This document shows positions 13,076 through 28,935 of a DNA stretch of 40,374 bases, one piece after another. The translations under genes were made by a program, and so were the position numbers. The DNA is from an uncultured Eubacteriales bacterium (GTDB lineage: Bacteria; Bacillota; Clostridia; Christensenellales; Borkfalkiaceae): NCBI GenBank assembly GCA_905211955.1, contig CAJMCT010000001.1, forward strand, positions 1 to 40,374. The letters run 5' to 3'. The notes under the pieces are model-generated. The model searched no databases. It saw only the letters and a list, made by a program, of their open reading frames with translations, and was not told the origin of the DNA. The first letter of the stretch is position 1. The number at the start of each line of letters is the position of its first letter.

Positions 13076-13077
13076 TC

Positions 13078-13101
13078 GGATGAGTAAACGATAGGGAGAA
13101 T
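13078..13101. repeat. Left terminal inverted repeat of the transposon
   Basis: GGATGAGTAAACGATAGGGAGAAT matches the reverse complement of the right end, AGATGAGTAAACATAGGGGAAAC. 20 nt match with two 1-nt indels. Confidence 0.7.
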
Positions 13102-13110
13102 ATGCAGCCG

Positions 13111-14799
13111 TTAAAAGATTTCGGCTACACGACTTCCTTTCACTTTATACCCGTGCGTGCTTTCCGCACCGATAAATTTATAAATAATTCTGATTTCCTG
13201 TTTGTGTGCGCTTCCGTCGGCATACTTCTCGCCTATATAAATCCTGTCGATGAAATTATTCAGTATTTCGGGTGTAAGTCCCTCGATTTCCGTATAACTA
13301 TTGACGACCTTCAGAAACTCACGAATATTGCTCTCTTCGTCGTTTACAAGATCTAAAGCCTTTTTCAACTCAAGGATTTCGCTCTTTAAAGCCGTTTGTT
13401 CCGCCTCGTATTTTTTCGCCAACAAATCAAAGCGTTCGTCCGAAATTTTACCGGTTACGTTGTCTTCATACAGGTTTGCAATGATATCGTCAAGCGTTTT
13501 TATACGATTTTCCGCTTTTACAATTTTCGTTTGCGCCGAGAGCCGCACGCTCCGCATTTCTTTTACCGAACATTTACGATACTTTTCGATAAACTCCGAT
13601 TCGTGCGTTTTCACTTCGTTCATCACCCGTTTAATATCTTCCAGAACCAATTCGTTCAACACCCTCTTCAGAATCGAATGCGCCGTACACTGAATTTTCG
13701 TCCGTCTGTTGTACTTTGAGCAAACGTAAAAATCATAGTTCCTGTTTTTTGCAACACGTCTTAAAGTGATAGGAAATCCGCAATCGGCACAATATAACAA
13801 TCCGGCGAAAATATTGATATCGTCAAAGTGATTTTTCACAACCCTTTTTACCTGCGTCAACTTCTGCGCCAGATCAAACGTTTCCTTATCGACAATCGCT
13901 TCGTGGTGATTTTCGATAACCTTCCATTCGGACGGATCGCGATAGACAAACCGTTTGTTTTTATACGATTTTCTCGTCGTTTTGAAATTTACGAGATGTC
14001 CGATATAATTCGGATTACGCAAGATTTTATAAACCGTGCTTCTGTGCCATAAATACGGTTCGGTCGTGTCGTTCCGATACATATTCCTGCCCTGTTTCAG
14101 ATAAAACGCTTTCGGGGTGTCGTAGCCATTTTCGGTCAGTATTTTCGCTATTGCAAGTGCGTTATAGCCGTTTACGCATAGTCTGAATATCTCCCGGATT
14201 GTCGGCGCGCACCTTTCGTCTATCAACCACTTGTTTTTGTCGTTCGGATCTTTCATATATCCGAGCGGCGGCGTGTTCGTCAGCGGTTTTCCCGATTCGC
14301 CTTTATTCCTTATCACCGCGCGTATTTTTTTGCTCGTATCTCTCGCAAGCCATTCGTTGAAAACGTTTTTGAACGGTATCAATTCGTTATCCGAGCCGTT
14401 TTCGCTATCCACGTTATCGTTTATCGCTATAAAATGAATATCTTTTTCGGCAAACGTAAATTCCGTAAGATAGCCGACTTTCAGATAATCTCTTCCGAGC
14501 CTCGACATATCTTTTACGATTATCGTTTTCACTTTTCCTTCGTCTACGTCGGACATCATTCTTTGAAAATCCGGGCGATTGAAATTCGTTCCGCTGTAAC
14601 CGTCGTCGATATAATATTCAATATTCCGGTATCCGTGTTGTTTCGCATACCGCCCGAGAATATCTCTCTGATTTTTGATACTGTTGCTTTCGCCCTCGGT
14701 CCCGTTATCGTCTACGCTGAGCCTGCAATAAAGCGCGGTTATTACCTCACCTCCGTTTTTTGTTCTTTTATTTTTATTTGCCGTTTGTAATTCTAACAT
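13111..14799 (-). CDS. Large serine recombinase (TnpX/TndX-like transposase)
   Basis: Catalytic motif ALYCRLSVDD...SIKNQ, DDGYSGTNFNRPDFQRM, SRLGRD, a recombinase domain and a Zn-ribbon (CADCGFP...YVCSKY). The stop lies 33 nt from the element end. Confidence 0.9.
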   Translation of the reverse strand: MLELQTANKNKRTKNGGEVITALYCRLSVDDNGTEGESNSIKNQRDILGRYAKQHGYRNIEYYIDDGYSGTNFNRPDFQRMMSDVDEGKVKTIIVKDMSRLGRDYLKVGYLTEFTFAEKDIHFIAINDNVDSENGSDNELIPFKNVFNEWLARDTSKKIRAVIRNKGESGKPLTNTPPLGYMKDPNDKNKWLIDERCAPTIREIFRLCVNGYNALAIAKILTENGYDTPKAFYLKQGRNMYRNDTTEPYLWHRSTVYKILRNPNYIGHLVNFKTTRKSYKNKRFVYRDPSEWKVIENHHEAIVDKETFDLAQKLTQVKRVVKNHFDDINIFAGLLYCADCGFPITLRRVAKNRNYDFYVCSKYNRRTKIQCTAHSILKRVLNELVLEDIKRVMNEVKTHESEFIEKYRKCSVKEMRSVRLSAQTKIVKAENRIKTLDDIIANLYEDNVTGKISDERFDLLAKKYEAEQTALKSEILELKKALDLVNDEESNIREFLKVVNSYTEIEGLTPEILNNFIDRIYIGEKYADGSAHKQEIRIIYKFIGAESTHGYKVKGSRVAEIF

Positions 14800-15026
14800 A
14801 TCTGTTTACCTCCGTCAGATTCCAAACAGCAAGTTCGTAACTTACCTTCTCCAAGCCGTTCTTCCGTCAGGCTTGTAAATTTTTTTATTACCAAACGCTC
14901 TAATATCTCGTATGCGGATTCTCGTGCGCCTTGCATCGATTCCGTGCTTACGATATACAGCGTTTCGTTTTTCCTTGCCCTTACCTTGTTTTTATCCGTT
15001 ACCTTATTTGTCTCTCTGTTTTGCAA
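14793..15026 (-). CDS. Hypothetical small protein upstream of, and overlapping, the recombinase gene
   Basis: The ORF overlaps the recombinase start by 7 nt. The annotated start is a TTG only 2-3 nt from AAGGAG, and an alternative ATG is at 14936. No recognisable domain. Confidence 0.35.
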   Translation of the reverse strand: MQNRETNKVTDKNKVRARKNETLYIVSTESMQGARESAYEILERLVIKKFTSLTEERLGEGKLRTCCLESDGGKQIC

Positions 15027-15047
15027 TTCTCCTTAACTTTATTGTGC

Positions 15048-15091
15048 GGATACTATGTTCTCTCTCCGGATGGATACTATGTTCTCTCTCC
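15048..15091. repeat. Two perfect 20-nt direct repeats (GGATACTATGTTCTCTCTCC) separated by 4 nt
   Basis: Read directly at 15048-15067 and 15072-15091. They lie in the intergenic region upstream of the small-ORF/recombinase unit. Confidence 0.85.
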
Positions 15092-15131
15092 ATAAACACA
15101 AAAATCCTCCTGTTCGATATTTTAGTTTTTG

Positions 15132-15428
15132 TTACGTTTTATTGTTGTTTTTCTCTTCCTCGAATTTGCGCAACTCAAAATCAAAGAAATCGTCGTAGCC
15201 GTCCGTTATCTTCGCAAGGTCGGTATTTATCTCTCCCGACTGCTCCAACAGCGACTTATATCCTTCTTCAATGAGTTTAACTTTCGTATACCCATGTTTC
15301 TTCAAAAATGCGTCTATTTCTTCCGCCGTTTCTCTCGGTATACTCGTTCCCCATACCACGTTTTTGGCTTTTCTCTCGTTCTTATGCTTTTCTTCGTATC
15401 TTTTATCTCTTTCGCTTCTCGGTTTCAT
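15132..15428 (-). CDS. Small basic protein, putative RHH-like DNA binder (paralog 2), downstream of mob
   Basis: 98 aa. ATG preceded by GGAGGG at 7 nt. Shares the KRYEEKHKNERK...SIPRETAEEIDAFLKKHGYTKVKLI core with the other two paralogs. Confidence 0.6.
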   Translation of the reverse strand: MKPRSERDKRYEEKHKNERKAKNVVWGTSIPRETAEEIDAFLKKHGYTKVKLIEEGYKSLLEQSGEINTDLAKITDGYDDFFDFELRKFEEEKNNNKT

Positions 15429-15543
15429 TCCTGAACCCTCCGTAAATATATCATCGTATCTATACGACGATTATATTTTACTGTTTTCTGCGCTCAGAGT
15501 CAAGCTCTTTTATGTGAACGGAGAGTAAAAGCCGCCTTAAATT

Positions 15544-16578
15544 TTACTTATGATTATTGTTTCTGCCTTGTTTTTCTTGCTTTTTGCGTTCTTCTTCGAT
15601 TTCCGCTTCTATCTGTTGTAACCTCGGAACTTGCCGAACGACGTCGAGCGTAAAGAGCGAAAGAACGGAATCGAAAAAGCTACCGATTGTTTTTGGCTTT
15701 CCGTGGACGATACGCTCGTATTCTTTCGGATTAGTTCTTGCAAGTGTTTTTCCCGCGTGGATATAACGATTATCGTTATCCCTTTGTCTTTGTAATGCTT
15801 CCGATTTCCGCGCATATTCGAGCGTTTCGTCCATAGCCTTTGTAAGCCGTTTTGAAAGGTCGTTGTTGTCTGCCGTTAAAGCGATTACTTGTTCCTGCAA
15901 CTTTCCGCGTTTCCGTGGAATATTCCCGCTTTTTGCCTCGGTTAAAGCGTCCGCATAAACCTGATTTTCTTCCCGTATGGCTTCCGCTTGCTCGATTATC
16001 TTTTTTGCCTTAAATTCTGCGGTGGAAAGGTGTTTTTTCTGACTACCTTCTTTTCCGCGCTGTAAACCCCAACGTTTTCCGACGGATTCATAAAAATCCG
16101 TCTGCAACTGCTGTAACTGCGGTTTATCGAAAAGTTGTTTACTGCAAAGTCTGCCGTCTTTTGTTACGGGCATCAGGTTTAAGTGCATATGCGGCGTTGT
16201 TTCGTCGTTATGAACAACCGCCGCGATAATGTTTTCTTCGCCGTAACGCTCCGCAAAAAACTTGTAGCAGTCCGAGAAAAAGTTATATTGTTCTATCTTG
16301 GCTAAACCGTCGAAAAAAGTTTTATCCGACCCTAACACAAACGAGTTCATTACAACTGCGTCTTTGCGCGGAGATAAGCCTAACTCTTTTATTCTGCCGT
16401 TTATGAACTCCGTGTAAGTTTTGCCGAAATATGGCGTGAAGCGATAATTGTTTCTCGTCCGCTCGCTGTCTATTTGTGGATTGTCCGACTTGTATTTTTC
16501 GTCCCGTTCGTTTTCCTTTTCGATAGGCGCGACGTCTTGTTTATGGTATTTCTCCATATGACACACTAAATATGAAAT
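15544..16578 (-). CDS. MobV-family relaxase (Mob/Pre plasmid recombination enzyme, TnpZ-like)
   Basis: Mob_Pre motifs include AAVVHNDETTPHMHLNLMPV (HxDE...HxH). The canonical N-terminus MSYLVCHMEKY requires an ATT start at 16578, 9 nt after AGGAGG. A conservative ATG is at 16557. The 36-codon extension in the ORF track lacks an RBS. Confidence 0.85.
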   Translation of the reverse strand: MSYLVCHMEKYHKQDVAPIEKENERDEKYKSDNPQIDSERTRNNYRFTPYFGKTYTEFINGRIKELGLSPRKDAVVMNSFVLGSDKTFFDGLAKIEQYNFFSDCYKFFAERYGEENIIAAVVHNDETTPHMHLNLMPVTKDGRLCSKQLFDKPQLQQLQTDFYESVGKRWGLQRGKEGSQKKHLSTAEFKAKKIIEQAEAIREENQVYADALTEAKSGNIPRKRGKLQEQVIALTADNNDLSKRLTKAMDETLEYARKSEALQRQRDNDNRYIHAGKTLARTNPKEYERIVHGKPKTIGSFFDSVLSLFTLDVVRQVPRLQQIEAEIEEERKKQEKQGRNNNHK

Positions 16579-16685
16579 GATGATTTTCCTCCTGAAATTT
16601 GTTTTTATTCTCATTGAGCAAAGTGTGTAGAATTTCCTCTGCCGACTGTTTTTATCAGTGGGTTCACAGCCTCGCAGAGCCCACA

Positions 16686-16717
16686 ACTTCGCCTGCGAAG
16701 TATAGTGGGCTACACTT
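16686..16717. other. Candidate oriT / RSA site for the MobV relaxase
   Basis: Hairpin ACTTCG-CCTG-CGAAGT (16686-16701) overlaps AAGTATAGTGGGCTACACTT (16698-16717). That segment resembles, from memory, the pMV158 oriT core AAGTATAGTGTGTTATACTT. It lies just upstream of mob. Confidence 0.45.
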
Positions 16718-16903
16718 TGCCTGAATTGTTCTCATTTTGCTTCCCGTTTGCTTCCAAAGTTTTTCTCTACGATATACATTGAAAAACGCTCTTAAAAATA
16801 CATTTTCAACTTGTATCCAACTTCATTTTTCTGCCTCCTTCATTTTGTTTTACTTTCAGTTTTTGTTCTTACGAGTCCACGAAAGACAAATTATCTCTCT
16901 ACT

Positions 16904-17015
16904 TATATTGGAAAGTTTCAATCTCTTTGCGGGGGTGTTTCGCAAAAGTTTTTTACCCCCTCACTATAATTGGAAAGTTACGAGCCGTTTGTCGGGGTAT
17001 TTCACGAAAATTTTT
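16904..17015. repeat. Two imperfect ~51-nt direct repeats, period 61 bp
   Basis: TATATTGGAAAGTT..TTTGCGGGGGTGTTTCGCAAAAGTTTTTT (16904-16954) versus TATAATTGGAAAGTT..TTTGTCGGGGTATTTCACGAAAATTTTT (16965-17015). Non-coding, between the operon terminator and mob. Confidence 0.6.
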
Positions 17016-17097: not shown

Positions 17098-17132
17098 ATA
17101 AATAATTTTATATGTTTTTATAATAAGTAATT

Positions 17133-17645
17133 TTAGTTAATGCCGCATTCCGATTCACTAATTAGAAGCGGTAAAAGCCATTTTAATATCCAACGCTTTG
17201 TCGTGTCGTAATTTGAATCGTAAAACACCGCGCCGACAATCGCTTCGATATAAGGATCGTGTCCTTTATTTACTACTTTTTCGTGATCTGGAACATTCGA
17301 ATCCGATTGGAAGTGTTTTGCGTTGTATGCATATCCGATTAAACCGCATTTCAGCATAATATTATGCATAACTTCATTATTTTCAAGTTTACTTTTTATC
17401 TGCGTAATCTCGCCTTTTGTAGTTATTCCTTTCCGATAGAGATAATCGGCAATAACGGATTTCAATACAGTATCGCCGATTGTTGCAAGCCCGTCGTTAG
17501 TGTATTCGCTATGGTTCTTTCCCTCTCCGAAAACTTCTATTTTTTCCGATCTCATTGCCTTTGAAAGCCACGCGATATCGTTAAAATGGTAATGTATTTT
17601 AATTTCAAGTTCGCGCATTTTTTGATATACAACGACTCTATCCAT
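17133..17645 (-). CDS. RNase III-domain-like protein (Mini-III-sized, no dsRBD); operon gene 7
   Basis: 170 aa. NDGLATIGDTVLK (17472-17498) aligns to the RNase III signature NERLEFLGDAVL. DPYIEAIVGAVFYD aligns to the second catalytic block DxxEAxxGA. The ATG overlaps the upstream stop by 1 nt. Confidence 0.55.
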   Translation of the reverse strand: MDRVVVYQKMRELEIKIHYHFNDIAWLSKAMRSEKIEVFGEGKNHSEYTNDGLATIGDTVLKSVIADYLYRKGITTKGEITQIKSKLENNEVMHNIMLKCGLIGYAYNAKHFQSDSNVPDHEKVVNKGHDPYIEAIVGAVFYDSNYDTTKRWILKWLLPLLISESECGIN

Positions 17646-18190
17646 CAGATTTTATCTCCATTGAATACAATTCTATTAGACAAATTCACTTCCACGGATT
17701 TACCGTTTTTATCTATATCAAACCAAGAAATATCATTTTTATATCTGTCCGTCAAGCATAAAATGCGTTGATTTTCAGAGCCGAGTAACCTGCGTTTTGT
17801 TTCTTTTTCTTCCAAAACGTATTCGCCATCAAGCACAAGGTCTACGCCGGCAAGAAAGTCTGAAACTTCTTCGTATTTTCTGCCCGTAAACGATATAATG
17901 CCAAGCCCGAGTTTTTTTATTTCGTTGGTTAAAAACGGAAGATTATGTTGACAAGTAGGTTCTCCGCCGGAATACGTTACCCCTTCAATTCCAAATTCGT
18001 CAATCGACTTTTTTATTACCGAAATAATCTCGTCGATCGACATAATATGGCGCGCAATAAACGGCTGGTAATCAGGATTACAACACTCGTTACAATGAAT
18101 ATCGCAACCCTGAAACCATATACACAATCTTTTGTGCGGACCTTCTGTTTCCGTACAACGGTTTATACTCGCAACGTTAAACTTAATCAT
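17645..18190 (-). CDS. Small radical-SAM protein of the NrdG/glycyl-radical-activase-like type; operon gene 6
   Basis: FQGCDIHCNECCNPD contains CxxxCxxC (18083-18106). GGEP motif (YSGGEPT). ~181 aa from ATG 18190, which overlaps the upstream gene by 8 nt. The ORF-track start at 18208 is a TTG. Confidence 0.65.
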   Translation of the reverse strand: MIKFNVASINRCTETEGPHKRLCIWFQGCDIHCNECCNPDYQPFIARHIMSIDEIISVIKKSIDEFGIEGVTYSGGEPTCQHNLPFLTNEIKKLGLGIISFTGRKYEEVSDFLAGVDLVLDGEYVLEEKETKRRLLGSENQRILCLTDRYKNDISWFDIDKNGKSVEVNLSNRIVFNGDKI

Positions 18191-20021
18191 TGTCAAAATC
18201 AAATTCAAGCCCGTTTTTCGTCGTTTTTACTACGATTTTCGAGCCTTTCATCGACGGCAATTCTTCTTTGTTTTCAAACATAAACATAGCAAGTTCGTCA
18301 AGCAATTTATCATTGATGGCGTTAAGAATATCACGACCGCCTTTACTGCTGTCCGCTCCGCCGAGAACGTAATCTATAAATTTAAGTTCGTCTTCAAATT
18401 CAAGGTCGATACGATATTTTTCCGATATTGCTTTCTGGACCGGACGAAGTTTCGATTTTGCAATTTTTACGCTAAACTCTCTGTCTTTGATGAAGTTGAA
18501 CGGAATGATATTGCTGTAACCGATACGACCGAGAATTTCGGGACGTTTGATTTCGTTATCGAAATAGTTTTTAACGATTTTTATAAACTCATCCGCCACT
18601 TCTTCGTTTGAACCGTTCGAAGACACTTCGGACGCTCCGAGATTTGACGTGAATATAATTACGCTTTCGCTGAAATAAACCGTTTCGCCTTTGCTGTCGG
18701 TAAGTCTGCCGTCTTCGAGAATTTGCAGAAAAATATCCAGAATTCTCGGATTCGGTTTTGCTGCTTTTTCGATTTCGTCGAATAGAATTATGCTGAACGG
18801 TTTTTCTTTCACGGCGTTAGTAAGTTGCCCGCCTTCTTCATAACCGACGTATCCCGGAGGCGCGCCGATAAGTTTCTGATCACTGTTTTCCTGCGCATAT
18901 TCCGACATATCGAAGCGAATACAAGCCTGTTCGTCGCCGAAAAGGAATTTTGCAAGCGCCTTTGAAAGTTCGGTTTTACCTACGCCGGTAGGTCCGACGA
19001 AAAACAGCACGCCTTTCGGTGCAGAACGAGAAGACGATTTATGTATTCCCGTAAGTCCCATATAAGCCTTAACAACGACTTTTTCAATCTTTTCGATAGC
19101 TTCTTCCTGACCGACTACACGTTCGCTTAAAATCTTTTTGATGTTTTTAACCGACTTATAGTCGAGTTTTTCCCAAGGATTATCTTTTTCGCCGTACTTA
19201 AACAGCAAGTACAACTGCTCGAACGGCATTTTGCCTTCTTTTCTCGAAAGGCGCGCCATCTGAACGATTTCACGGTTTGTAAAATCGTCGAGCATATCGA
19301 CGTATTCGTTAAATTTGTCCGAAGTCAGGAGCGTTTCTCCGGGTTTGAGTTTTACGTCGAATCCGCTCTCGATTTTTTCCATCATTTTAGCGCGTTCTTC
19401 TCTGTCGGGTTTTGAAAGAGTAAGACAAGCGACTTCGGGGTTGCCCTGATAGAAAGAAATCGGGAACATTGCCAGTTTGCTCGTAATGAGAATAACCGTG
19501 CTTTCGTTTACTTCGGCAGACAAATACTCCGTTTTTTTATCTTTTATCGCTTTCCCGAGCATTGTGATAAGTTCTCTCTCGTCGGGCGGTAATTGTCCGC
19601 CGCTTGAAAAGAGATAATCCGCCCAATTCAGCACGAAAGCAGTTTTTCTATTCGGCTTCTTCAAGTTTTTGAATACGATATTGAAAATCTCGGCAGGCTC
19701 TTTGAACTGACCGCTTCCCGTTTTTTCTTCCGCTTGCGGTTGATTATCTTCGTCATCGTCAAAGGAATAAGCGTCTCCTTCAACTTCGACTTCATCGATA
19801 ACGGAAAGCCTTGAAACGTCTCCGTCTATGCCGTCGATACGATCCCAATACAAAACGTCGTCGTATTCCATTCCTTTGAGCATGTCCGTAAGGTATTGTT
19901 TCAGATCGACGATTTGCTTTTTGTCGTTAAGATACACGTCACCGACGTTGCCGTCGAGTATTACGCATCTTTTGATACCGACTTCGCGTTTTAACCTGTT
20001 AAACGTTGTTTGTAATGCCAT
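18183..20021 (-). CDS. AAA+ ATPase with a ClpA/ClpB D2-type module and a degenerate N-terminal half; operon gene 5
   Basis: VVGQEEAI...FFVGPTGVGKTELSKALA (Walker A at 18972-18995), LIGAPPGYVGYEEGGQLT and IILFDEIEKA (Walker B) are classic Clp D2. The first ~330 aa have no Walker A. The start is ATG 20021, preceded by GAGGTG at 6 nt. Confidence 0.75.
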   Translation of the reverse strand: MALQTTFNRLKREVGIKRCVILDGNVGDVYLNDKKQIVDLKQYLTDMLKGMEYDDVLYWDRIDGIDGDVSRLSVIDEVEVEGDAYSFDDDEDNQPQAEEKTGSGQFKEPAEIFNIVFKNLKKPNRKTAFVLNWADYLFSSGGQLPPDERELITMLGKAIKDKKTEYLSAEVNESTVILITSKLAMFPISFYQGNPEVACLTLSKPDREERAKMMEKIESGFDVKLKPGETLLTSDKFNEYVDMLDDFTNREIVQMARLSRKEGKMPFEQLYLLFKYGEKDNPWEKLDYKSVKNIKKILSERVVGQEEAIEKIEKVVVKAYMGLTGIHKSSSRSAPKGVLFFVGPTGVGKTELSKALAKFLFGDEQACIRFDMSEYAQENSDQKLIGAPPGYVGYEEGGQLTNAVKEKPFSIILFDEIEKAAKPNPRILDIFLQILEDGRLTDSKGETVYFSESVIIFTSNLGASEVSSNGSNEEVADEFIKIVKNYFDNEIKRPEILGRIGYSNIIPFNFIKDREFSVKIAKSKLRPVQKAISEKYRIDLEFEDELKFIDYVLGGADSSKGGRDILNAINDKLLDELAMFMFENKEELPSMKGSKIVVKTTKNGLEFDFDND

Positions 20022-20026
20022 TATTT

Positions 20027-21112
20027 TCACCTCTTATTTGTGTTTGTTTTTACCGTTTGGTACTTCATAGACAATATTTTATCGGGATTGCTCCAAATTT
20101 CCTGCGTTTTGGTAACATGTAAACCGTAAACTTCTTCCAAATCGTTCAGAAAAGGCTGTATATCCTTTTGGCACGCCTGTCCTTCGTAACCTCGGAAGTC
20201 GTAAATAAATTTACCGTCCAGAAACACGCGGAATTCCGCTTTTTCGCCGCTTGCTTTCAGTCCGACCAAAATCACTTCGTTTGTATCGCGTTTGATTTTT
20301 ATATTCTTTTTATCCACGATAAATCCGCGGGCGGTTATCGCCGACATTATGATTTTCAGCGACTTCTGACGGATTTTTTCGCCTACGATTTCTTCCGTCG
20401 CCGCCGATCTTATTTCGGAAAGCGGTTTATTCTCTGTTATGACTTTATCGATGATAGTCTTTTCAACTCTTGCGGCTTCGAGTTCGCGGCGAATCTTTTC
20501 ACGCTCTTTTTCGATACGCGATTCATAAGTTTCGTTTTTGAGTTCTCTGCCCGCTCTGATTAGATCATCGCCCGAAAGCGTATCGTTTTTCAGATATGCA
20601 AGGTAAGCAAACTGCCTTTCCGTTTCGTCCTGAATGGAATCGAGAAGTTTTTGAATCTCGGCGGGGATTGTAACGACTCCGTTTGCTTTATCTCTCAATC
20701 TTTTTTGATTTTCTTCGATACTGTTTTCAAGTAAACTTTGATAAAGCGCGCGCATTTCGACTAATCGTTTAGCCGCCAACTCGTTTACTTGATTTTGTAA
20801 TTCTTGCGCCGCTTTATCCACGTTATCGGCAGAATTCAGTCTTAATCTGTCGCTATCACCGCTTACAACGCCTTTTTTCGCTACTTCTTTTGCCTGCGCT
20901 TTTAAGTTTTCGATTTTTCTAACGAATGAATCTCGTTTTTCTACAATCAATTGTTGTAATGCCGCCGTCTGACTATTCTGTAAGCTTTGCGAGCCGTTTT
21001 CTATATCCGAAAGTATCTGGTCGAGTTCGGCGATCTGCCTTTCGGCAACTTCGCAAATGCTTTCGCATCTTATCGCTATCGCCTCGTAGTCTATTTGTAC
21101 CTGATGGCTCAT
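20027..21112 (-). CDS. Coiled-coil protein with a ~100-aa C-terminal globular domain, unknown function; operon gene 4
   Basis: The first ~260 aa have heptad-rich, low-complexity Q/E/K/L/A composition. The start ATG 21112 forms an ATGA overlap with the stop of gene 3. No recognisable catalytic motif. Confidence 0.6.
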   Translation of the reverse strand: MSHQVQIDYEAIAIRCESICEVAERQIAELDQILSDIENGSQSLQNSQTAALQQLIVEKRDSFVRKIENLKAQAKEVAKKGVVSGDSDRLRLNSADNVDKAAQELQNQVNELAAKRLVEMRALYQSLLENSIEENQKRLRDKANGVVTIPAEIQKLLDSIQDETERQFAYLAYLKNDTLSGDDLIRAGRELKNETYESRIEKEREKIRRELEAARVEKTIIDKVITENKPLSEIRSAATEEIVGEKIRQKSLKIIMSAITARGFIVDKKNIKIKRDTNEVILVGLKASGEKAEFRVFLDGKFIYDFRGYEGQACQKDIQPFLNDLEEVYGLHVTKTQEIWSNPDKILSMKYQTVKTNTNKR

Positions 21113-23337
21113 TTTCGTTCCCCCTTTATGGCAAATACTATATCGCGCCAATTTTCAATCGTTTCTTTATCGAAACGTGTTTGCGACTTTTCCGGATGTT
21201 GCAATCCGTTTCTGCACATACGAAGTTTATGTAATGCGGATTCTTGCTTGCCGTCGAGAATGCCTTTATCTTTTGCCATAACGAGTAAATCGTGTGCAGA
21301 CGTCATAGGCTCGGCGTTAAGCATATCTCTTAAATCGTATTGCAGTTTTACGAATAAATCGCAAATTACGTCTTTATATTTTCCGCGTGCAATCTGCTCG
21401 TCAACGTATTTTTTCGTAATTTTTTCGGGATGAGAAGACGCGCTGCGCTCAATAGACAACAAATCGTGAATCGGTTCGTAAATCTCTATAAACTTTCTGA
21501 TTGCAGCATAGGATTTAGGCGCATATTTCTCGTATTTTGCCACCGATTTCAACTTCGAATTAAGCGTAGCGTAAGCATCGAAAAATTCGTCTTCGTTATA
21601 ATCGTCTTTAAGCGTATATTCCGAAAGGCTCTCTATCCCGAGCATATCGTTCAGTTTCCACAAATTCCGTTTAATATTACAAAAAGTGTTACCGAGATCG
21701 GAATCCGAGTAAATTTCTTCGTTATTTACAACTTTCTCGGCAAAGTCCGCCACCACATTCACAACACTTAAAACGGCGTCAACGGTAAAACCTGCGCTTA
21801 AAAGTGCCTCGTAAACAATATCGTCGTCTTCCGTTTTTTTCATTTCTTTCGCAAAGGCGGAAACGTAGTCGAAATCGTTCATCCCGAGTGCTTTTCTGAG
21901 CGGATTCAACACCGACGATTTATAAATCGCATTATCGATTTTTATCTCGCTTGCGCTTTCTTCAAACAATTCTTTTGCCGTCGATACAAAATAGTTTTGC
22001 CACTCGGCATTCTTGATAAAAGCGTTATTCAGTTTTAACACAACTTCTATCTTTTCATCAACAGTTTTTGTGTTTTCAAACAGCGCCCTAATAGTTCTAC
22101 CAAAATACGAAGAATCTTTCAACGCGGCAACCGTAAACAAAACCACTTTTGCAACATCGTCGGCAAAATCTTTTTGTACGTAATACTCAAAAATTTCTTC
22201 TACCGTTTCTTTATGGCGCATTTCGTCTAAAACACTTTCGGTAAGCAACTGCATTTCAAACGTATCGCCAAGCTGGTTGCAAGCCATTTTTACGTTTACG
22301 GCGGAATAGTAGTGAAGCGCGGAAGTATCGAGCAAAGCAAACTCGGCATTCCCGCCTATTTCGCCAAGTATCTTTATCGAAAAATCTTTATCCGTTCTTA
22401 AAACGTTATCCGTTCTGTCGGTTGCAAGTCTGCCGCCGTCGATAAAAATTTTACAAGGTCGTTTCGCCTGCTTGGATACGTCGTTCGGGATATATGCGCC
22501 CACGATATCGGTAAGCTCGGAAAGTAACACCGTCGGCACGTCTACCGCATTTTTAAGAGCGTCCACAAACTTATACTTTTCTTTGGCAAGCAAGCATTTT
22601 GTCATAAATGCGGATGAATACCACTTGTCAAAATATGCGGTTTCGTCCGACGTTTCAAACGAAAATACAGCGCCGCTTTTGTTTATTACAACTTGCGTTC
22701 CGTCCTCTTTTCTGACTTGTTTTTCTTCTCCGACCTTGGGTATTTCGACTTCGACAACGCGTTCTTCGGCTTTTAGCCCTACTTTTGTCGGATTCGCTTC
22801 TATATAATCTTTAAGTCCGCTTATGTCTATCGTTTTTCCTAAAAACCTTTCGATATCTTCGTAAAGAACGGACGAATCGAGAGAGGTATACGGAAGCGAA
22901 TAACTCACGTCGAATTTCCGCGTTACGGGGCTATAAAAAATATCTTTCGTCTTTACTTTTTCTTCGCCTGTGGGAATCGCGCCTTCACGGAACATTTTTC
23001 TGCCTTTCGCAGTAAGCGAAACGTCTTTTACTCTGATTTCCGAAAAGTATTTCGGATTCATAAAATGCGACGGATCGTAGTCATAAGACAGTATTTCGGT
23101 ACCGATAAGATTTGAAATTTCTTTCCCGAAAATATAGTGCAAATCATTCGGAATCCCGAATTTAAGCAGCACGTCGCATATTTTGTCTTCCGAACCCGCA
23201 GTTTTTTCGATTACGTCGAGTAGAATATATGCAACGCCCGACGCCTTCCTTACCTCGTTATATCGCACGTTTACTTTATAGACAAGTAGCGGAAACGGAA
23301 TAGCCGTAGTGAATTTTAACAAACTTTTCTCTTCCAT
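21109..23337 (-). CDS. 742-aa protein of unknown function with a C-terminal HEPN-like Rx4H motif; operon gene 3
   Basis: No recognisable N-terminal domains. The C-terminal helical region contains LHKLRMCRNGLQH, with R-N-G-L-Q-H at 21196-21213. The ATG lies 1 nt after the helicase stop. Confidence 0.6.
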   Translation of the reverse strand: MEEKSLLKFTTAIPFPLLVYKVNVRYNEVRKASGVAYILLDVIEKTAGSEDKICDVLLKFGIPNDLHYIFGKEISNLIGTEILSYDYDPSHFMNPKYFSEIRVKDVSLTAKGRKMFREGAIPTGEEKVKTKDIFYSPVTRKFDVSYSLPYTSLDSSVLYEDIERFLGKTIDISGLKDYIEANPTKVGLKAEERVVEVEIPKVGEEKQVRKEDGTQVVINKSGAVFSFETSDETAYFDKWYSSAFMTKCLLAKEKYKFVDALKNAVDVPTVLLSELTDIVGAYIPNDVSKQAKRPCKIFIDGGRLATDRTDNVLRTDKDFSIKILGEIGGNAEFALLDTSALHYYSAVNVKMACNQLGDTFEMQLLTESVLDEMRHKETVEEIFEYYVQKDFADDVAKVVLFTVAALKDSSYFGRTIRALFENTKTVDEKIEVVLKLNNAFIKNAEWQNYFVSTAKELFEESASEIKIDNAIYKSSVLNPLRKALGMNDFDYVSAFAKEMKKTEDDDIVYEALLSAGFTVDAVLSVVNVVADFAEKVVNNEEIYSDSDLGNTFCNIKRNLWKLNDMLGIESLSEYTLKDDYNEDEFFDAYATLNSKLKSVAKYEKYAPKSYAAIRKFIEIYEPIHDLLSIERSASSHPEKITKKYVDEQIARGKYKDVICDLFVKLQYDLRDMLNAEPMTSAHDLLVMAKDKGILDGKQESALHKLRMCRNGLQHPEKSQTRFDKETIENWRDIVFAIKGERK

Positions 23338-23338
23338 T

Positions 23339-26300
23339 TTACTCTCCTAAAATATCTTTCGCCGTAAGTATTCTTCCGCGGAAGTTTATCGTGTCGATAA
23401 TTTCTCTGTATACGGGGAAGTTGATTTTATCGCGACTGTGATCGCCTTCGAGATCGGGAAGGTCGATTATGCCCGCTTCCGATAAAAACTTTTTCGAGCC
23501 GACAATAATCAAAAGTTTTCTCGCTCTTGACAACGCAACGTTGATACGCTCGAATTTTTTGATAAATTCCGCATCATACCTCGCGCCGCTCGGATTTCTT
23601 ACCATCGAAACGATAATGATATCCCTTTCATCGCCTTGGAAATCGTCAACGGTACTGATAACAAGTTTTTCGTCCGGTTTACCCGAAAAGCCCGTAAATT
23701 GATAGCCTTTACGTTTCTTTTTTATTAGTCCCGCCTGATCGCCATATGTACAAATAATACCCGCGCTCGGTCTTTCGTCGATTTTCCTTGACGGATCAAC
23801 GATAATTTTATGCTCGGAAACAAGCACTTTCGCCGCTTTGTCGAGTTCCTTTAATAGCGTTATCGCAACCTGCGCTTCCTGCTCGTTGATTTTGGACGTA
23901 CTGCCTTCGAATGCGCTCGATTCTTTTTGGTCGCAATCCACAAAATATATGTGCCGTTTGGGATCGATAACGGTATTTCCGTTGATTTTTACGGTAAGAT
24001 TATGCTCTTTTTCGTCGTCTTGTTGTTTTTTTCCTACAACAAGACCTTTACCATTACCGCCATAGAAATGATTGAACACTTCCATAATGTGGCTGTGGCA
24101 ACGGTATTGCTTATTAAGCATTACTCTGAAATCGCTCGGAACTTTCTCATACAGCGTTTTGAAGAAACATTCTTCATATAACTTTGTATATCCGTCGTTG
24201 ATTTCCTTTGTGATTTTTTCTTCGTCGAGTCCGTCGAAATCATCTCCCCGCATATGCCGCAAATCGTACATAGGCGGAAGTTGACGATGGTCGCCGACGA
24301 GAATAACCGTCTTGCCGTATAAAATAGGTATCAGCAAATCGAGAAAAGACGACTTTGACACTTCGTCCACGATTACAACGTCTATGCCTTGCGTTCTGAT
24401 ATCTACCGATTCGATTCCGTATTTACCGAGTTCGGCAAGTTGCGACGGCGTGAATCTGTCGCGGCTTGTGCAGGTAATACCGAAAACGTTTGCCGAATTG
24501 TAAAGTTCTCTCGTATATGCGGCTCTATCTTCCTCTAAGATATCTTCCTGCGACAAGTATTTTACGATATCCTTATACATCGGAATTTTTATTTTGTTTT
24601 CGGAAGACGAAGCATTATACTCGGTTTCGAGTTTATTCCACTCGTCGCTGATAATGTCGAAAGCCGTTTCAAGATTGTCCGAATCGTATTCCCTGACAAT
24701 TCCGAAATCGCGGAAAAATCTCATAATCTTTTGTTTTAGTACGGAATTCAACTCACCGTATTCTTCAATATCGGGATTTTCTCCGAGTTTTTCGTATAAA
24801 CGTTTTTTCTCGCTTATTTGGATTTTTAGTTCGTTTATTTTATCGGATATAGCGTTTTCGTTGTCTATATCGCCATTGATTTTGAATTCGATTATATTTC
24901 TCTGTGTGTTTACAATATCGGCAAGTTTTGCCTTGAATTGCGCAAGTTCGGAAGGCAATTGCTTCAATATTTCTTTTGCACCCGTAATACCGGGGACGAG
25001 AGAGTAAATCACGCTTCCGGCAATATCGAACTCCGAATTATTTTCGTATTCTTTAATCTTTTTGCCTACGGCAATCAACTCGCTTTGATTCTTTTTATAC
25101 TCTTCGTAATTAAAATCTCCTTCATTCGGTGCTTCGTCCGTATCGGGATCTCGCAAACCGCTCAAAACGTTTCGCAAAGCACGCTGGCGATTTTTTAACT
25201 CCACAATCGCGTCTTCGCTCAAAAAACGCTCTAATTCTTTGTTTATTGCCTGAATATCGGCATTAACAAGCTCGGCAACCTTATCGAGCGTTACCTCTTC
25301 AAAACAAGCAAAGCACTTTAACAGGCGTTCTACTTGTTCGGCGTATTTATCCAATACGTTGCTATCTGCGCCTTCGCCCGAAAAACGATACGATTCGACG
25401 TATTTAAGCGTTCTCGTATACTTTTCGGTATCTTCTTTTGCGGCAAGAAGTTTTTCTCTTAAAACTTCGTTTTCTCCGGTTAAACGGTTTATTTCTGAAA
25501 GCAAATTGTTCCGCTTTCTTTCCGTATCTGCATTCTCCCGTTGCAATTTCAAAAGGCGATCGTAATCGAGGCGAAGAGATTTCATCGTCGAATCGAATTC
25601 TTCTCTCGTCTCTTTGTAATTGTCGTATCTTGCTACTTGCTTTTCAAGGTTTCCGCAAATATTGAGATAGAAATTGTCTACAAGCCTTTCGGGACTGTAA
25701 TTCGTTTCTTTACCGTTTTGCGACGGAATAAGACGAAGCGGACGTATTTCGGGGATTTTAGGCAATCTGTCAAATACGTTATCGATTGCCTTATGTGTTT
25801 CGGAAGATATTAAAACTTTCTTACCGCGTTTCGTCAGTTGCGCCGTAATCTCGGCTATAACCTGTGTTTTTCCCGTTCCCGGAGGACCTTGCAACAAAAA
25901 TATACTTTCGCTTTGAAGCGCGCGTTTTACGGCAAGTTTTTGTCTGTCGTTCAAACTTTCAAGACACCACTCGGGATCTTTGATCTCTTCTACGGAAGAC
26001 TGCGCAAGCGTTTCGGGCGAAAAAAGATACGTCGGTAAGAACGGATTCTTAACGTACCCGCCCAAAATAGAAGTCAACGCCTTTTCTTGTCTGTCTATTT
26101 TTGCTTTTTCCGCACGATTATCATAAGTAAGATACCTCGGCGCAATTTCCTCGATTTGCTTTTCGATTTCTTTTACTTTGTCTGTGATATCTTGCGGACG
26201 GAAATAAATCTGATATCGGCGTATCGTTTCGTTCTCGATTTTATCAGCCTTATCTTCGTTTAATTTTTGAAGTAAAACGTTTTTTATTTCGGTTTTCTCG

Positions 26301-27964
26301 GAATCGATACCCTCTGCATATTGAAATTCTAATTGATTTTTCTTTTCCTTTTTAAGTTTATCCAGTTCTTCCTGACAACGTATTGCCAAACTCTTTTGCT
26401 TTTTCTCGACAAGTGCCATATTGCGGCGAATATAATGGTCACGCAAAGATACCTGTGCCTTCGCCATTTCTATACGCTTATCGTATTCATCGTTCAATGC
26501 CGATTCATCACCGTATAAAGCATCGATCTGTTTGTCTTTTTCGGCGGTAGACAATTTTGAGCGTCTAATTTGGTCTATTTTGGAACGAATTGAGCCGAGT
26601 CGTTTCTTCCTTTCGGTTTCAATCGGCGTGATAAGTTGAGTAATCTCGCTTTGGTATGCCTTGTATACATCTTTATCGGAATTATTTATAACGTCGGAAT
26701 CAAGTCTATCGTAAAGCTCTGTTTTGTATTCAATAAGTTGTGCGTCGTATTTTTCTTGCGTTTTAGCAGAAACGCCTGCCATATAACGATTCACCTCGGC
26801 AAGAATTATACCGTTATACTTGCTGTCGATTTCTCCGTATCTTGCAGTCAATTCTTTTTCGTAATTCTTGTCGAGAGCAGATAAATCAGGTTCTATATCT
26901 ATGTACGCGAATAAATATCGTTCACCGAGAAGATACGATTTGATACTTCTGATATTACCTTTATCGTCCGATTTCGGCGGATACGGCGACAACCCCATAG
27001 CGTCCCGAGTATATCGGTTCAGGTTAACCTCAAACTTCGGTTTTCCTTTCCCGTTTCTACCAACCGTTTCGGATAATATTTCCTTTCTGTTCTTTTCTAT
27101 CGCAACGCAAATCAGCGGAAAACCGTCGGCGCCCGCCACTTCTTTCGATAATATTATCTGCTCGCTTTTGCCGAAATCTTTAATTCCGTCCAAAAGAAGT
27201 CCTGAAAAAGCCTCTTCGTTTCTGCGATAGGATTCTTTCGTTATCATATATGCGTCGCATACGTGAACGTCGGTAATTTCTTCGCAACGCTCGGATTGTT
27301 TTCCTAAATAGTATCTGCGAAAATCGATATACCGCAACCATTGATTAAAAATGCCAATCGCCTCGGCGGGATTCGGAACGGGAAATAGTTTAGTGGCTAT
27401 TTCATTTACAAAGTCGTTTGTAAGAACAGAATCGTGCAATTCGCCGTTACCGTAATCAGGAACCGAAAACGTATTTCCGGTATTTCTGCTATATATTTCC
27501 TTCTTTGCAAACGCACAAAGCGACGAACAAAAAACTCGCTTTTCTCCGTATTTTACCGTTCGTCTGTCTATCAAATCTATCCCTTTTACGGATATTTCCG
27601 TAACGTTCCCAAATGTAACGTCGCCGATTATTATAAAGTCGTATGTTTCGGGCAGAATATGGCGAGAGTTTTCATCCGCTTCGGGGCGAATTACGATATT
27701 ACGCAAAATCTTATTCCCACGCTTATTTTCGTCCATTGTTCTGTCAAACGAAGGCAAAGATACGTTGTAATATTTTTCAGGCGTAGACGGAAACGTGTAT
27801 CCGATAAATTCTTGAAAAGTGTCGGGCGCATAACCGCCGAGTTTTCTTTTCAGCGTTTCGTATTGCTCGTTTAACGATTGTGTGAAAAAGTCGTTTCTCC
27901 CCCAAGCCTTATCACCTAAACCTTTATCCAAATTATCCAAGAAATTCAGATATAAGTAAGCCAT
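23339..27964 (-). CDS. 1541-aa Upf1/DNA2-like superfamily-1 helicase with large uncharacterised N-terminal and coiled-coil regions; operon gene 2
   Basis: Motifs read: I LLQGPPGTGKTQ (25865-25888, about residue 693), II VVIVDEVSK (D about residue 1200), III VGDHRQLPP, IV LNKQYRCH, V TVDDFQGDERDIIIV, VI NVALSRARK. Confidence 0.8.
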   Translation of the reverse strand: MAYLYLNFLDNLDKGLGDKAWGRNDFFTQSLNEQYETLKRKLGGYAPDTFQEFIGYTFPSTPEKYYNVSLPSFDRTMDENKRGNKILRNIVIRPEADENSRHILPETYDFIIIGDVTFGNVTEISVKGIDLIDRRTVKYGEKRVFCSSLCAFAKKEIYSRNTGNTFSVPDYGNGELHDSVLTNDFVNEIATKLFPVPNPAEAIGIFNQWLRYIDFRRYYLGKQSERCEEITDVHVCDAYMITKESYRRNEEAFSGLLLDGIKDFGKSEQIILSKEVAGADGFPLICVAIEKNRKEILSETVGRNGKGKPKFEVNLNRYTRDAMGLSPYPPKSDDKGNIRSIKSYLLGERYLFAYIDIEPDLSALDKNYEKELTARYGEIDSKYNGIILAEVNRYMAGVSAKTQEKYDAQLIEYKTELYDRLDSDVINNSDKDVYKAYQSEITQLITPIETERKKRLGSIRSKIDQIRRSKLSTAEKDKQIDALYGDESALNDEYDKRIEMAKAQVSLRDHYIRRNMALVEKKQKSLAIRCQEELDKLKKEKKNQLEFQYAEGIDSEKTEIKNVLLQKLNEDKADKIENETIRRYQIYFRPQDITDKVKEIEKQIEEIAPRYLTYDNRAEKAKIDRQEKALTSILGGYVKNPFLPTYLFSPETLAQSSVEEIKDPEWCLESLNDRQKLAVKRALQSESIFLLQGPPGTGKTQVIAEITAQLTKRGKKVLISSETHKAIDNVFDRLPKIPEIRPLRLIPSQNGKETNYSPERLVDNFYLNICGNLEKQVARYDNYKETREEFDSTMKSLRLDYDRLLKLQRENADTERKRNNLLSEINRLTGENEVLREKLLAAKEDTEKYTRTLKYVESYRFSGEGADSNVLDKYAEQVERLLKCFACFEEVTLDKVAELVNADIQAINKELERFLSEDAIVELKNRQRALRNVLSGLRDPDTDEAPNEGDFNYEEYKKNQSELIAVGKKIKEYENNSEFDIAGSVIYSLVPGITGAKEILKQLPSELAQFKAKLADIVNTQRNIIEFKINGDIDNENAISDKINELKIQISEKKRLYEKLGENPDIEEYGELNSVLKQKIMRFFRDFGIVREYDSDNLETAFDIISDEWNKLETEYNASSSENKIKIPMYKDIVKYLSQEDILEEDRAAYTRELYNSANVFGITCTSRDRFTPSQLAELGKYGIESVDIRTQGIDVVIVDEVSKSSFLDLLIPILYGKTVILVGDHRQLPPMYDLRHMRGDDFDGLDEEKITKEINDGYTKLYEECFFKTLYEKVPSDFRVMLNKQYRCHSHIMEVFNHFYGGNGKGLVVGKKQQDDEKEHNLTVKINGNTVIDPKRHIYFVDCDQKESSAFEGSTSKINEQEAQVAITLLKELDKAAKVLVSEHKIIVDPSRKIDERPSAGIICTYGDQAGLIKKKRKGYQFTGFSGKPDEKLVISTVDDFQGDERDIIIVSMVRNPSGARYDAEFIKKFERINVALSRARKLLIIVGSKKFLSEAGIIDLPDLEGDHSRDKINFPVYREIIDTINFRGRILTAKDILGE

Positions 27965-27965
27965 T

Positions 27966-28490
27966 TTACTCCCCCTTCGTAAATTTACGATACTTATCGA
28001 ATATATCTATATAATCCAAAAATTCCTTTATTTCTGCAGGCGACATACCGTTTGTAATACCGCCGACTTTATCGAGTATAACGCTTTTCGTAAACGGATC
28101 GAGTCCGTTTAATGCTTGCCCCGCAGTCAATTGCTGTTTTAACGCATCGTTTTCGCTTTGTAATCTTTCAAGTTCGTTTGTCAGATTTTCCACAGAAGAA
28201 AGCGACTGCTTTTTATCCTGAATACTGTCTTTCAGAATACTCGAAATTCTGTTGACGTATTGTGCGAGAATATCGGGATCGGACTCGTCAAGAACCAACT
28301 CCAATTCATCTTCGCTTTCCTTCCCGAAAAGATAGAAGATTTTATATTGCTTATCTTTAGGAATATCCGAAAAGTTTTCTAGATTTCGATAATTGTAGAT
28401 CGTCGCTTTGGATATTTCGAGATATTTAATTAAATCCGTAACCTTAATAGAAAATTTCGTAACGAGTCTTTCAAATAATTTCGTTGTCAT
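27966..28490 (-). CDS. HTH DNA-binding protein with a central coiled coil (putative operon regulator); operon gene 1
   Basis: N-terminal HTH-like VTDLIKYLEISKATIYNYRN. Coiled-coil segment LTNELERLQSENDALKQQL. The stop lies 1 nt before the helicase ATG. Confidence 0.6.
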   Translation of the reverse strand: MTTKLFERLVTKFSIKVTDLIKYLEISKATIYNYRNLENFSDIPKDKQYKIFYLFGKESEDELELVLDESDPDILAQYVNRISSILKDSIQDKKQSLSSVENLTNELERLQSENDALKQQLTAGQALNGLDPFTKSVILDKVGGITNGMSPAEIKEFLDYIDIFDKYRKFTKGE

Positions 28491-28519
28491 TTTTGGTACC
28501 TTCTTATCCGTTTGACATC

Positions 28520-28548
28520 ATTATACTATATTAAAAACATAATGTCAA
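28520..28548 (-). promoter_or_regulatory. Consensus sigma-A/sigma-70 promoter of the seven-gene operon
   Basis: On the minus strand: TTGACA (28548-28543), exactly 17 nt, then TATAAT (28525-28520). It lies ~30 nt upstream of the gene 1 ATG. It is bracketed by the 7-bp inverted repeat TTGACAT/ATGTCAA (28542-28548 and 28512-28518). Confidence 0.65.
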
Positions 28549-28814
28549 TACATTTTGTCTAAAATAGTCTAATTTATATCCAATAAAACAAAAAAATTTT
28601 GTAAACAACTAAAAAGTAGTGTTTTTAGACCAATTTAACCATTTCATTCTGCCTTTTCTATGCTTAAGCCGCAATATACGGACCTCATATAAACGCTTAC
28701 GATATTTTCAAAGCAAAAAGAGACTGCCTGTCTTTTTAATTGCAATCTCTTTTACTTAAAGCATTATATTACGTTGTTTTTATAGCAATATATTTACGAA
28801 CTTGCTGTTTGATT

Positions 28815-28837
28815 GTTTCCCCTATGTTTACTCATCT
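28815..28837. repeat. Right terminal inverted repeat of the transposon
   Basis: Plus-strand GTTTCCCCTATGTTTACTCATCT is the reverse complement of AGATGAGTAAACATAGGGGAAAC, which matches the left end at 13078-13101. Confidence 0.7.
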
Positions 28838-28935
28838 TCACTTGACACTCGCCCGTAAAAAACGACACGCCGCTGTCGGTTTCTGTTAGTATTCACACCC
28901 GTAGGCATAACCATACTGTTTTCAACCATTTGCAT
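28838..28935 (-). pseudogene. 5' fragment (32 codons) of the split large serine recombinase gene
   Basis: The minus strand reads MQMVENSMVMPTGVNTNRNRQRRVVFYGRVSS, then enters the transposon end and stops (..EDE-TAA). YGRVS is the serine-recombinase catalytic motif. GGGAGG lies upstream. Confidence 0.75.

Follow-up and report, generated by a model that had tools for sequence, protein, structure and literature searches.

Positions 13078-28837 of a 40,374-nucleotide stretch of DNA from an uncultured Eubacteriales bacterium of the Borkfalkiaceae (assembly GCA_905211955.1, contig CAJMCT010000001.1, here called the window) form a mobile element of 15,760 bp. With a probability of roughly 85%, it is an integrative mobilizable element with a Tn5397-like recombinase and a Tn4451-like layout, whose preferred target is the catalytic codon of large serine recombinase (LSR) genes. 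The element itself lies within such a gene.

The interrupted gene and its empty site

The flanks of the element are the two halves of one LSR gene, a circumstance absent from the initial annotation. If position 13075, the dinucleotide TC and position 28840 are joined in silico, a minus-strand open reading frame (ORF) of 592 amino acids is restored. The rejoined protein reads MQMVENS...RRVVFYGRVSS-EHEAQLSALENQ and contains Resolvase and Recombinase domains. The crossover dinucleotide, GA on the coding strand, makes up the first two bases of a glutamate codon located two residues past the catalytic serine (RVSS-E|HEAQ), and the gene is split between these two bases and the third base of the codon. 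The recombinase encoded by the element is 20% identical to the one it interrupts.

Uninterrupted versions of the host protein exist. A search with the reconstituted sequence found a protein of 590 amino acids that is 100% identical to it (P0121, with 107 member sequences), another that is 99% identical (P0122), and many further relatives. The contigs encoding these two proteins (L215 and L214, respectively) hold the exact 42-mer GGGCGAGTGTCAAGT-GA-ACATGAAGCGCAG within an intact ORF. The empty target site that the initial annotation had proposed to look for therefore occurs in nature, and a resealed target in the window is predicted to read GTGTCAAGTGAACATGAAGCG.

Two details of the reading frames at the junctions are worth recording. 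For the truncated 5' part of the host gene, translation would end three codons inside the element, at a TAA in the terminal repeat (GA-A GAT GAG TAA; 28826-28839). At the other end (13078-13113), what remains of the host LSR ORF shares its frame with the stop codon of the element's LSR gene, at a distance of 11 codons. Relatives with 80-83% identical LSRs lack this in-frame relation, which is probably a coincidence.

Ends of the element and the GA core

The end sequences from which the initial annotation had drawn the boundaries are present as quoted, as is the TC that flanks each of them. At the left junction, TC (13076-13077) is followed by GGATGAGTAAACGATAGGGAGAA at 13078-13100. At the right junction, TTCCCCTATGTTTACTCATCT at 28817-28837 is followed by TC (28838-28839) and then by ACTTGAC. 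The element has ten ORFs of at least 98 amino acids, all intact. As every one of them is on the minus strand, the dinucleotide reads GA in the coding direction. The same 2-bp GA is found at both junctions and in the unoccupied target.

The ends had also been described as inverted repeats with 20 matching nucleotides. This count is correct, and the repeat is imperfect. The left end and the reverse complement of the right end share 11 contiguous nucleotides (GATGAGTAAAC), then six (ATAGGG) and three (GAA), in an alignment with two 1-nt gaps and one mismatch at the outermost base. Shuffled 40-kb windows contain 230-312 exact 11-mer inverted pairs, with 0-5 extending comparably to the repeat of the element. 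The terminal inverted repeat by itself is no better than chance, and the boundaries thus needed independent tests. The exact delimitation is proven by the restored ORF, by the natural empty sites in L214 and L215, and by other copies with identical ends.

Such copies were collected from species-representative genomes, from metagenome contigs that match a pattern shared by the two ends, and through homologue look-ups. In every copy the recombinase-side end reads CCCT(A/G)TCGTTTACTCATCC-GA-flank, and the far end reads flank-GA-N-GA(C/T)GAGTAAACATAGGGG. Among the junctions listed there are 29 distinct far-side flanks and 27 distinct recombinase-side flanks, all of which abut GA. The boundaries are therefore the same in other copies. 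Two of these are also complete (L095+L102 with 15,778 bp, and L165+L120 with 15,727 bp), are 95-96% identical to the element in the window, and upon in-silico removal restore LSR ORFs in two other genes.

At the far end, near-identical copies have A, C or T as the base adjoining GA (position 28837 in the window and its counterpart in L006-L014 and L091-L208). This base differs within one and the same target gene, being C in L006 and L013 and T in L117. A 3-bp duplication, comprising GA and the variable base, was considered and ruled out: the copy L165/L120 has C at its far end and T in its target. The repeat is thus 2 bp long, as expected for a serine recombinase.

Preference for recombinase genes

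On the far side, 17 of the 29 distinct flanks encode an LSR N-terminus that ends in [YF]xRVS[ST] exactly at the GA. On the recombinase side, about 18 of 27 continue in frame as LSR sequence, which may read EHEAQL(A/S)ALENQ, D(S/G)EDQLESY.AQV.YY, DEESQQSSYELQ (DEESQQ..) or DKDDQLNSFF. Junctions in LSR genes, about 60-70% of the distinct junctions listed, are always two codons past the catalytic serine. At each of them the genes of the element are co-oriented with the target gene, which a non-palindromic GA core would require. The dominant target of the element family is the catalytic-site codons of diverse LSR genes, and this is a preference. The remaining junctions lie at other GA sites, for instance in an hsdR-like gene in L018. 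Some of these flanks still end in ..RLSS, ..RYSS or ..GVST.

More distant relatives behave alike. Elements with LSRs 83%, 80% and 70% identical to that of the element in the window (L001, L020 and L019, respectively) have inserted into DUF4368-type LSR genes, at the codon that corresponds. They have different ends, GTATACTCATC(T/C) and GTACACTCATCC, and their junctions read SS-E/D-DE(R/L/Q).GES. The far end of the 70% relative L019 was not found within 10 kb. Relatives with LSRs about 50% identical or less have no LSR gene immediately downstream.

One could suppose instead that the element is an ordinary low-specificity transposon of the Tn4451 kind, that it needs little beyond GA, and that its junctions in LSR genes go back to a few old insertions spread along with host integrative and conjugative elements (ICEs). 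Tn4451 relatives are indeed described as having low integration specificity (PMC5704250), DUF4368-containing LSRs have been classed as multi-targeting (PMC10083194), and 8-12 distinct flanks per side are not LSR genes. Against this, the LSR-type flanks come from at least five LSR families and differ by 35-45% of their nucleotides, next to element DNA that is about 95% identical, so they do not trace to a single ancestral insertion. By global alignment on the recombinase side, these flanks are about 63-66% identical to one another (90 nt), as compared with about 95% for the adjoining 300 nt of the element; the same measure on the far side is confounded, because several cargo types share just the first ~44 nt. 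Divergent flanks beside near-identical element ends indicate that the insertions were independent and recent. Furthermore, the crossover falls at the same codon in all LSR-type flanks, and relatives with 70-83% identical LSRs and different ends do the same in yet other LSR genes. Insertion with low specificity is therefore a very unlikely explanation of the junctions.

A possible basis for the preference can be read from the ends themselves. Read in the coding direction, the recombinase-side end is GTT TAC TCA TCC GA, encoding V Y S S followed by E or D, and the far end is N GAC GAG TAA (D E stop). The joint of a circular form would thus read VYSS-(E/D)-DE followed by a stop, which resembles the LSR motif Y-x-R-x-S-x-(D/E)-x-E. 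In DUF4368-type targets, the crossover is followed by GA(T/C/G) GAC GA(G/A), for instance GAT GAC GAG in the target of L020, almost the same sequence as at the far end of the element. Judging from these sequences, the likeness of the joint to the catalytic motif of LSRs probably underlies the target preference. The consensus of the target half-sites bears a weak likeness to the element ends, such as GA(A/G) at +5 to +7, and the resemblance of joint and target is suggestive, not a defined motif. At the equivalent place in its own gene, the LSR of the element has AGC GTA GAC GAT AAC GGG, which does not contain the GAC GA(G/A) of DUF4368-type targets. Such a sequence would be compatible with self-avoidance.

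In L016 (2355-2400), one non-LSR flank, GA-ATACGAGTAAGACAAT, looks similar to the element's far end, GA-AGACGAGTAAACATAG. Either this target mimics the joint, or an adjacent copy has left a relic there.

Proposed excision, transfer and mobility

The mechanism proposed for the element starts with its TndX-like LSR, which would recombine both ends at the 2-bp GA core. This reaction would release a circle with the joint GTTTACTCATCC-GA-AGATGAGTAAAC (also given as GTTTACTCATCC-GA-NGAYGAGTAAAC) and reseal the target exactly. The circle could then integrate at another GA-centred site. Transfer from cell to cell would make use of the MobV relaxase, an oriT upstream of its gene, and the mating apparatus of a co-resident conjugative element. 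Of the independent insertions of the element and of relatives with 70-97% identical LSRs, most are at the same codon of several LSR families, and a minority are at other GA sites.

The single LSR is the sole integration and excision enzyme, and the ten ORFs include neither a tyrosine recombinase nor a DDE transposase. Scans with Pfam and NCBIfam found no type IV secretion system (T4SS), coupling-protein or Tn916-like genes within 13078-28837. With no transfer genes of its own, the element is mobilizable and not conjugative.

It might also be that the copy in the window is a fixed, immobile insertion, or a domesticated intervening element that switches the host recombinase on by regulated excision, as skin and SPbeta do with sporulation genes. 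Excision would restore the host LSR ORF exactly, the joint pattern is absent from the metagenome_contigs collection, and degenerate copies of the element do exist. This is unlikely in view of the intact state of all ten ORFs in the window copy and of near-identical copies in dozens of contexts; moreover, nothing ties excision to a host programme. A switch would in any case be compatible with a mobilizable element and offers no alternative to its mobility.

The degenerate copies are of two kinds. In L011/L207, the element is shortened by internal deletions in the helicase and recombinase genes. This pair was rejected as an example of paired ends, being a degenerate copy with different DNA beside its recombinase. 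In L003/L004 (11700-12000), the LSR ORF of the element is split into 354 and 170 amino acids, and the target LSR is cut to a remnant of 88 amino acids.

The element is widespread. The exact LSR protein of the window has no record in the sequence collection, and homologues 96-99% identical to it are common. LSR homologues number in the thousands, and the cluster P0001 (96% identical) has 1499 members. The collection has 232 blocks in which the exact 174-amino-acid protein from the far end is indexed, and the ten-gene layout also occurs on human-gut metagenome contigs. The hosts are uncultured gut Clostridia, including metagenome-assembled genomes labelled Christensenella and Catabacter.

Several points weigh against the interpretation of the element given above. 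The pattern GTTTACTCATCCGANGAYGAGTAAAC, which would detect a circular joint or a tandem copy, gave 0 matches in metagenome_contigs, where assemblies seldom capture circular forms; a search with C-terminal LSR fragments (P0025) yielded three further junction contigs and no circular joint. The natural empty sites need not be products of excision, since the element may never have occupied them. The junctions were taken from matches that were listed or ranked by length, not from a random sample, and 30-40% of them lie outside LSR genes, which makes the targeting a preference rather than a rule. A fixed 2-bp crossover alone does not account for the variable base beside the GA at the far end; as a speculation, this base might come from occasional crossover at the second GA of GA-N-GA. 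For its family, the recombinase was compared with TndX alone. Finally, the candidate oriT is a hairpin read by eye, which the repeat finder, at its settings, did not list.

Genes of the element

The features of the element and of the interrupted gene are collected in Table 1.

Table 1. Positions of the element, its ends, its genes and the two parts of the target gene in the window
Feature	Position	Strand	Remarks
Target gene, 3' part	11395..13075	-	Residues 33-592 of host LSR; Resolvase and Recombinase, no DUF4368; resumes (E)HEAQLSALENQ
Crossover dinucleotide, recombinase-side junction	13076..13077	-	TC on plus strand, GA on gene strand; same GA after GTTTACTCATCC in every other copy
Recombinase-side end, including terminal inverted repeat 13078-13100	13078..13110	-	Gene strand CCCTATCGTTTACTCATCC, translating VYSS just before GA; kept in L003, L005, L016-L018, L021, L084, L088 and 23 metagenome loci
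Large serine recombinase, 562 aa, TndX-like	13111..14799	-	Pfam Resolvase, Recombinase, Zn_ribbon_recom, DUF4368 (E 9e-19)
98-aa protein upstream of LSR gene	15132..15428	-	No family match (PHROGs, NCBIfam, relaxed Pfam)
MobV (Mob_Pre) relaxase, 380 aa	15544..16686	-	Pfam Mob_Pre, E 9.7e-54; NCBIfam MobV, 179 bits against a cut-off of 100
Candidate oriT, nested hairpin just upstream of mob	16679..16710	-	GCCCAC-TATA-CTTCGC-AGG-GCGAAG-TT-GTGGGC, read by eye
Cargo block, seven co-oriented genes	17133..28490	-	Pfam, PADLOC, NCBIfam
RNase III-like protein, 170 aa	17133-17645	-	
NrdG-like radical SAM protein, 187 aa	17645-18208	-	
ClpB-like AAA+ protein, 615 aa	18183-20030	-	PADLOC PDC-M37B and DolB models
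374-aa protein	20027-21151	-	
742-aa protein	21109-23337	-	C-terminal RNGLQH motif (Rx4H, HEPN-like); weak DUF4145 match
SF1 (superfamily 1) helicase, 1541 aa, MkoA-like	23339-27964	-	PADLOC MkoA, E 5e-87
HTH (helix-turn-helix)-like protein, 174 aa	27966-28490	-	First cargo gene
Sigma-70 consensus TTGACA-17-TATAAT	28520..28548	-	12/12 match, consensus match only; 30 nt upstream of first cargo gene
Far end, including terminal inverted repeat 28817-28837	28794..28837	-	Gene strand AGATGAGTAAACATAGGGGAAACAATCAAACAGCAAGTTCGTAAAT; ~44 nt kept even in relatives with unrelated cargo
Crossover dinucleotide, far-side junction	28838..28839	-	TC on plus strand, GA on gene strand
Target gene, 5' part	28840..28935	-	First 32 codons of host LSR (MQMVENS...RVVFYGRVSS), ending one codon past catalytic serine

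The initial annotation had named a TnpX-like recombinase whose gene ends 33 nt from the left terminus. The ORF stops at exactly this distance, and over its full length the protein is 39% identical to annotated TndX (546 amino acids, E 9e-122). Its DUF4368 domain and its homology to TndX place it with the LSRs of transposons, and not with phage integrases that use unrelated cores. The LSR does match the PHROG phrog_95, "integrase", and the element might thus be taken for a prophage remnant or a phage satellite with a phage-type serine integrase. This origin is extremely improbable. The element lacks genes for structure, packaging or lysis, PHROG matches of its other proteins are limited to two weak ones of the 174-amino-acid protein, and a MobV relaxase is present. 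Likewise, the four matches of the end pattern in the viral_contigs collection were rejected, since they come without flanking element sequence and are not element ends.

The MobV relaxase that had been predicted is borne out by both the Pfam and the NCBIfam models. As residue 39 is where the Pfam match starts, the mechanically assigned TTG start at 16686 probably lies upstream of the true one.

The 98-amino-acid protein has a counterpart beside the host recombinase. It is 50% identical over 58 amino acids to an 87-amino-acid protein encoded upstream of the host LSR (29248-29511, minus strand). A homologue is also found upstream of another LSR gene, at 18707-19000 of L011. These small proteins of 87-98 amino acids share the motif ...ERK.K....G..IPR....EI..FL.KH..TKV.LI..GY.SL and sit upstream of unrelated LSR genes. 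The 98-amino-acid protein is possibly a regulator or directionality factor of these recombinases.

Cargo

The order of the cargo genes is the same in L001, L003 and L006-L015. The 742- and 374-amino-acid proteins gave nothing reliable in scans of PHROGs, NCBIfam and relaxed Pfam. An assignment of the cargo to the Mokosh type I system was considered on account of the MkoA match and rejected, since no MkoB or phospholipase D (PLD) match occurs among the cargo proteins; nor does the cargo as a whole match any complete known defence system. It looks like a candidate defence system of uncharacterized type that may be RNA-directed. The promoter consensus in front of the first cargo gene suggests that the cargo probably has a strong promoter of its own, independent of read-through from the interrupted host gene.

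The cargo is exchanged while the ends are kept. When 36 far ends are aligned, they agree over about 44 nt and then continue into at least four unrelated sequences. Far ends with diverging cargo are found in L116, L117, L119, L155, L187, L189, L196 and L202, in L140, L172, L191 and L204, and in L208. One alternative cargo set starts with an XRE-like HTH gene. The relative L001 combines cargo of the window type with an 83% identical LSR, and L019 and L020 carry other cargos. On this comparison, the module of recombinase and ends behaves as a chassis that swaps its cargo.

Comparison with known systems

The initial annotation had called the element Tn4451/Tn5397-style. This holds for its Tn5397-like recombinase and its Tn4451-like layout; the Tn916-like conjugation module of Tn5397 is missing.

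Both TnpX and TndX use a 2-bp core (PMC5704250, PMC3158075). Tn5397, known from Clostridioides difficile and enterococci, resembles the element in having a full-length homologous LSR and a GA core. In both, the recombinase gene comes last, points outward and has its stop codon between a few and a few dozen nucleotides short of the end. In a Tn5397-like segment of an Enterococcus faecium plasmid, for instance, tndX stops a few bases before a Fic-like flank. The targets of Tn5397 always have a central GA; DNA encoding a Fic domain is strongly preferred, and if that site is lacking, many places are used (PMC4430133). Both thus strongly prefer DNA coding for a conserved protein domain and fall back on other GA sites (PMC4430133). 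The preferred domain differs, being the Fic domain for Tn5397 and the catalytic-site codons of LSRs for the element. Tn5397 is also conjugative and Tn916-like, with its own transfer genes and tet(M), whereas the element has a MobV relaxase only and defence-like cargo. Having no Tn916-like genes, it is not a member of the conjugative Tn5397 family and shares with it the type of recombination module only.

Tn4451 and its relatives combine a serine integrase acting on 2-bp identical sequences with a MobV relaxase and low specificity (PMC5704250, PMC3158075). The clostridial transposons Tn4451 and Tn4453, with TnpX and the Mob/Pre protein TnpZ, agree with the element in having one LSR, a MobV relaxase, a 2-bp core and no conjugation genes (PMC5704250, PMC3158075). 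A further likeness is a TnpV homologue in the ICE-like DNA surrounding the element. Tn4451 differs in its catP cargo and its low specificity. Its tnpX lies at the opposite end, under a promoter that is put together at the circular joint. The LSR gene of the element, in contrast, is at the end, points outward and has an upstream region of its own.

A similar nesting is found in C. difficile R20291, where Tn6104, Tn6105 and Tn6106, LSR-bearing mobilizable transposons of about 11-16 kb, lie inside the LSR-bearing CTn5-like ICE Tn6103. Tn6104 has a 2-bp direct repeat, and its circular form and empty site have been demonstrated (PMC3158075). Unlike the element, these transposons interrupt ORFs 1743 and 1776 of the ICE, in its conjugation module, and no preference for recombinase genes is reported (PMC3158075).

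Other mobile elements aim at a conserved functional site of their fellows. The "res hunters" Tn5053 and Tn402 target the res sites of other mobile elements. IME_oriT elements, which integrate at the nic site of ICE oriTs, are alike in concept (PMC5704250). Both groups differ from the element in their enzymes, which are tyrosine integrases or DDE transposases with TniQ, and in their targets, the nic site of oriT and res sites. None of them is known to split the coding sequence of a recombinase at its catalytic motif.

DUF4368 marks a clade of multi-targeting LSRs that includes TndX-like transposases, and this clade was excluded from the published analysis of target-gene enrichment (PMC10083194). 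By the measure of LSRs at least 90% identical in more than 3 unrelated target gene clusters, the recombinase of the element is multi-targeting, with several LSR families, an hsdR-like gene and other non-LSR flanks among its targets. The census of junctions shows a dominant target class, something not analysed for the DUF4368 clade in PMC10083194. No report of LSR genes as a preferred target was found in the literature searched, which is not proof that none exists. New relative to known systems are the homing target and the cargo; the recombination chemistry and the mobilizable layout are familiar.

Genomic surroundings

The surroundings of the interrupted LSR gene are ICE-like. On the right there are the TnpV homologue, a VirB4/TraG-like ATPase, a WYL regulator and a protein of 1028 amino acids, one segment of which is T4SS-pilin-like. 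The left side has GmrSD and a type III restriction-modification system, together with an AbiE pair and an HTH gene.

The defence genes on the left form a cluster at 270-10139 on the minus strand, with a GmrSD-like gene (270-2087), type III Res (3518-6130) and Mod (6142-7863), and an AbiEii/AbiEi-like pair (8467-10139). The GC content of this cluster is 0.33-0.37, as compared with 0.40-0.42 in the element.

On the other side, within 30197-32627, a gene of the aminoglycoside 2''-nucleotidyltransferase family (31250-31741, minus strand; Pfam E 2e-60) lies between an N-terminal AbiEii fragment of 85 amino acids (31763-32020) and an ORF of 303 amino acids with the C-terminal AbiEii part (30197-31108). 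A DUF6088 (AbiEi-like) gene adjoins the split AbiEii. It looks as though a resistance-type gene was inserted into the toxin gene AbiEii, or replaced its middle.

Implications

The element is a clean mobilizable transposon of the TndX/TnpX type, with exact ends, targets and natural empty sites, and it is abundant in human-gut Clostridia that are little studied genetically. A wider picture can be drawn, tentatively. The element and its relatives may be a guild of mobilizable hyperparasites whose homing sites are the catalytic-serine codons in LSR genes of other mobile elements, with an attachment site that mimics or derives from the motif. Insertion would reversibly disable the recombinase of the host ICE or prophage, and excision would re-arm it when the mating apparatus is needed. 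The conserved 44-bp end and the LSR would serve as the chassis on which defence cargos are swapped among gut Clostridia.

If the preference is true, it presents mobile elements policing or exploiting one another. Targeting of LSR genes could explain some of the split "pseudogene" recombinases in ICE annotations, and it suggests that ICE mobility could be locked reversibly. The idea that the host recombinase is re-armed by excision at the moment when a mating apparatus is called for is attractive, and speculative.

The family may also be of practical use. An LSR with many natural attB sequences and a compact attachment site is the type of data needed for predicting the specificity of recombinases in genome engineering. 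In addition, the chassis carries a seven-gene candidate defence system that is uncharacterized and includes a helicase, a HEPN-like protein, a ClpB-like ATPase, a radical SAM protein and an RNase III-like protein.

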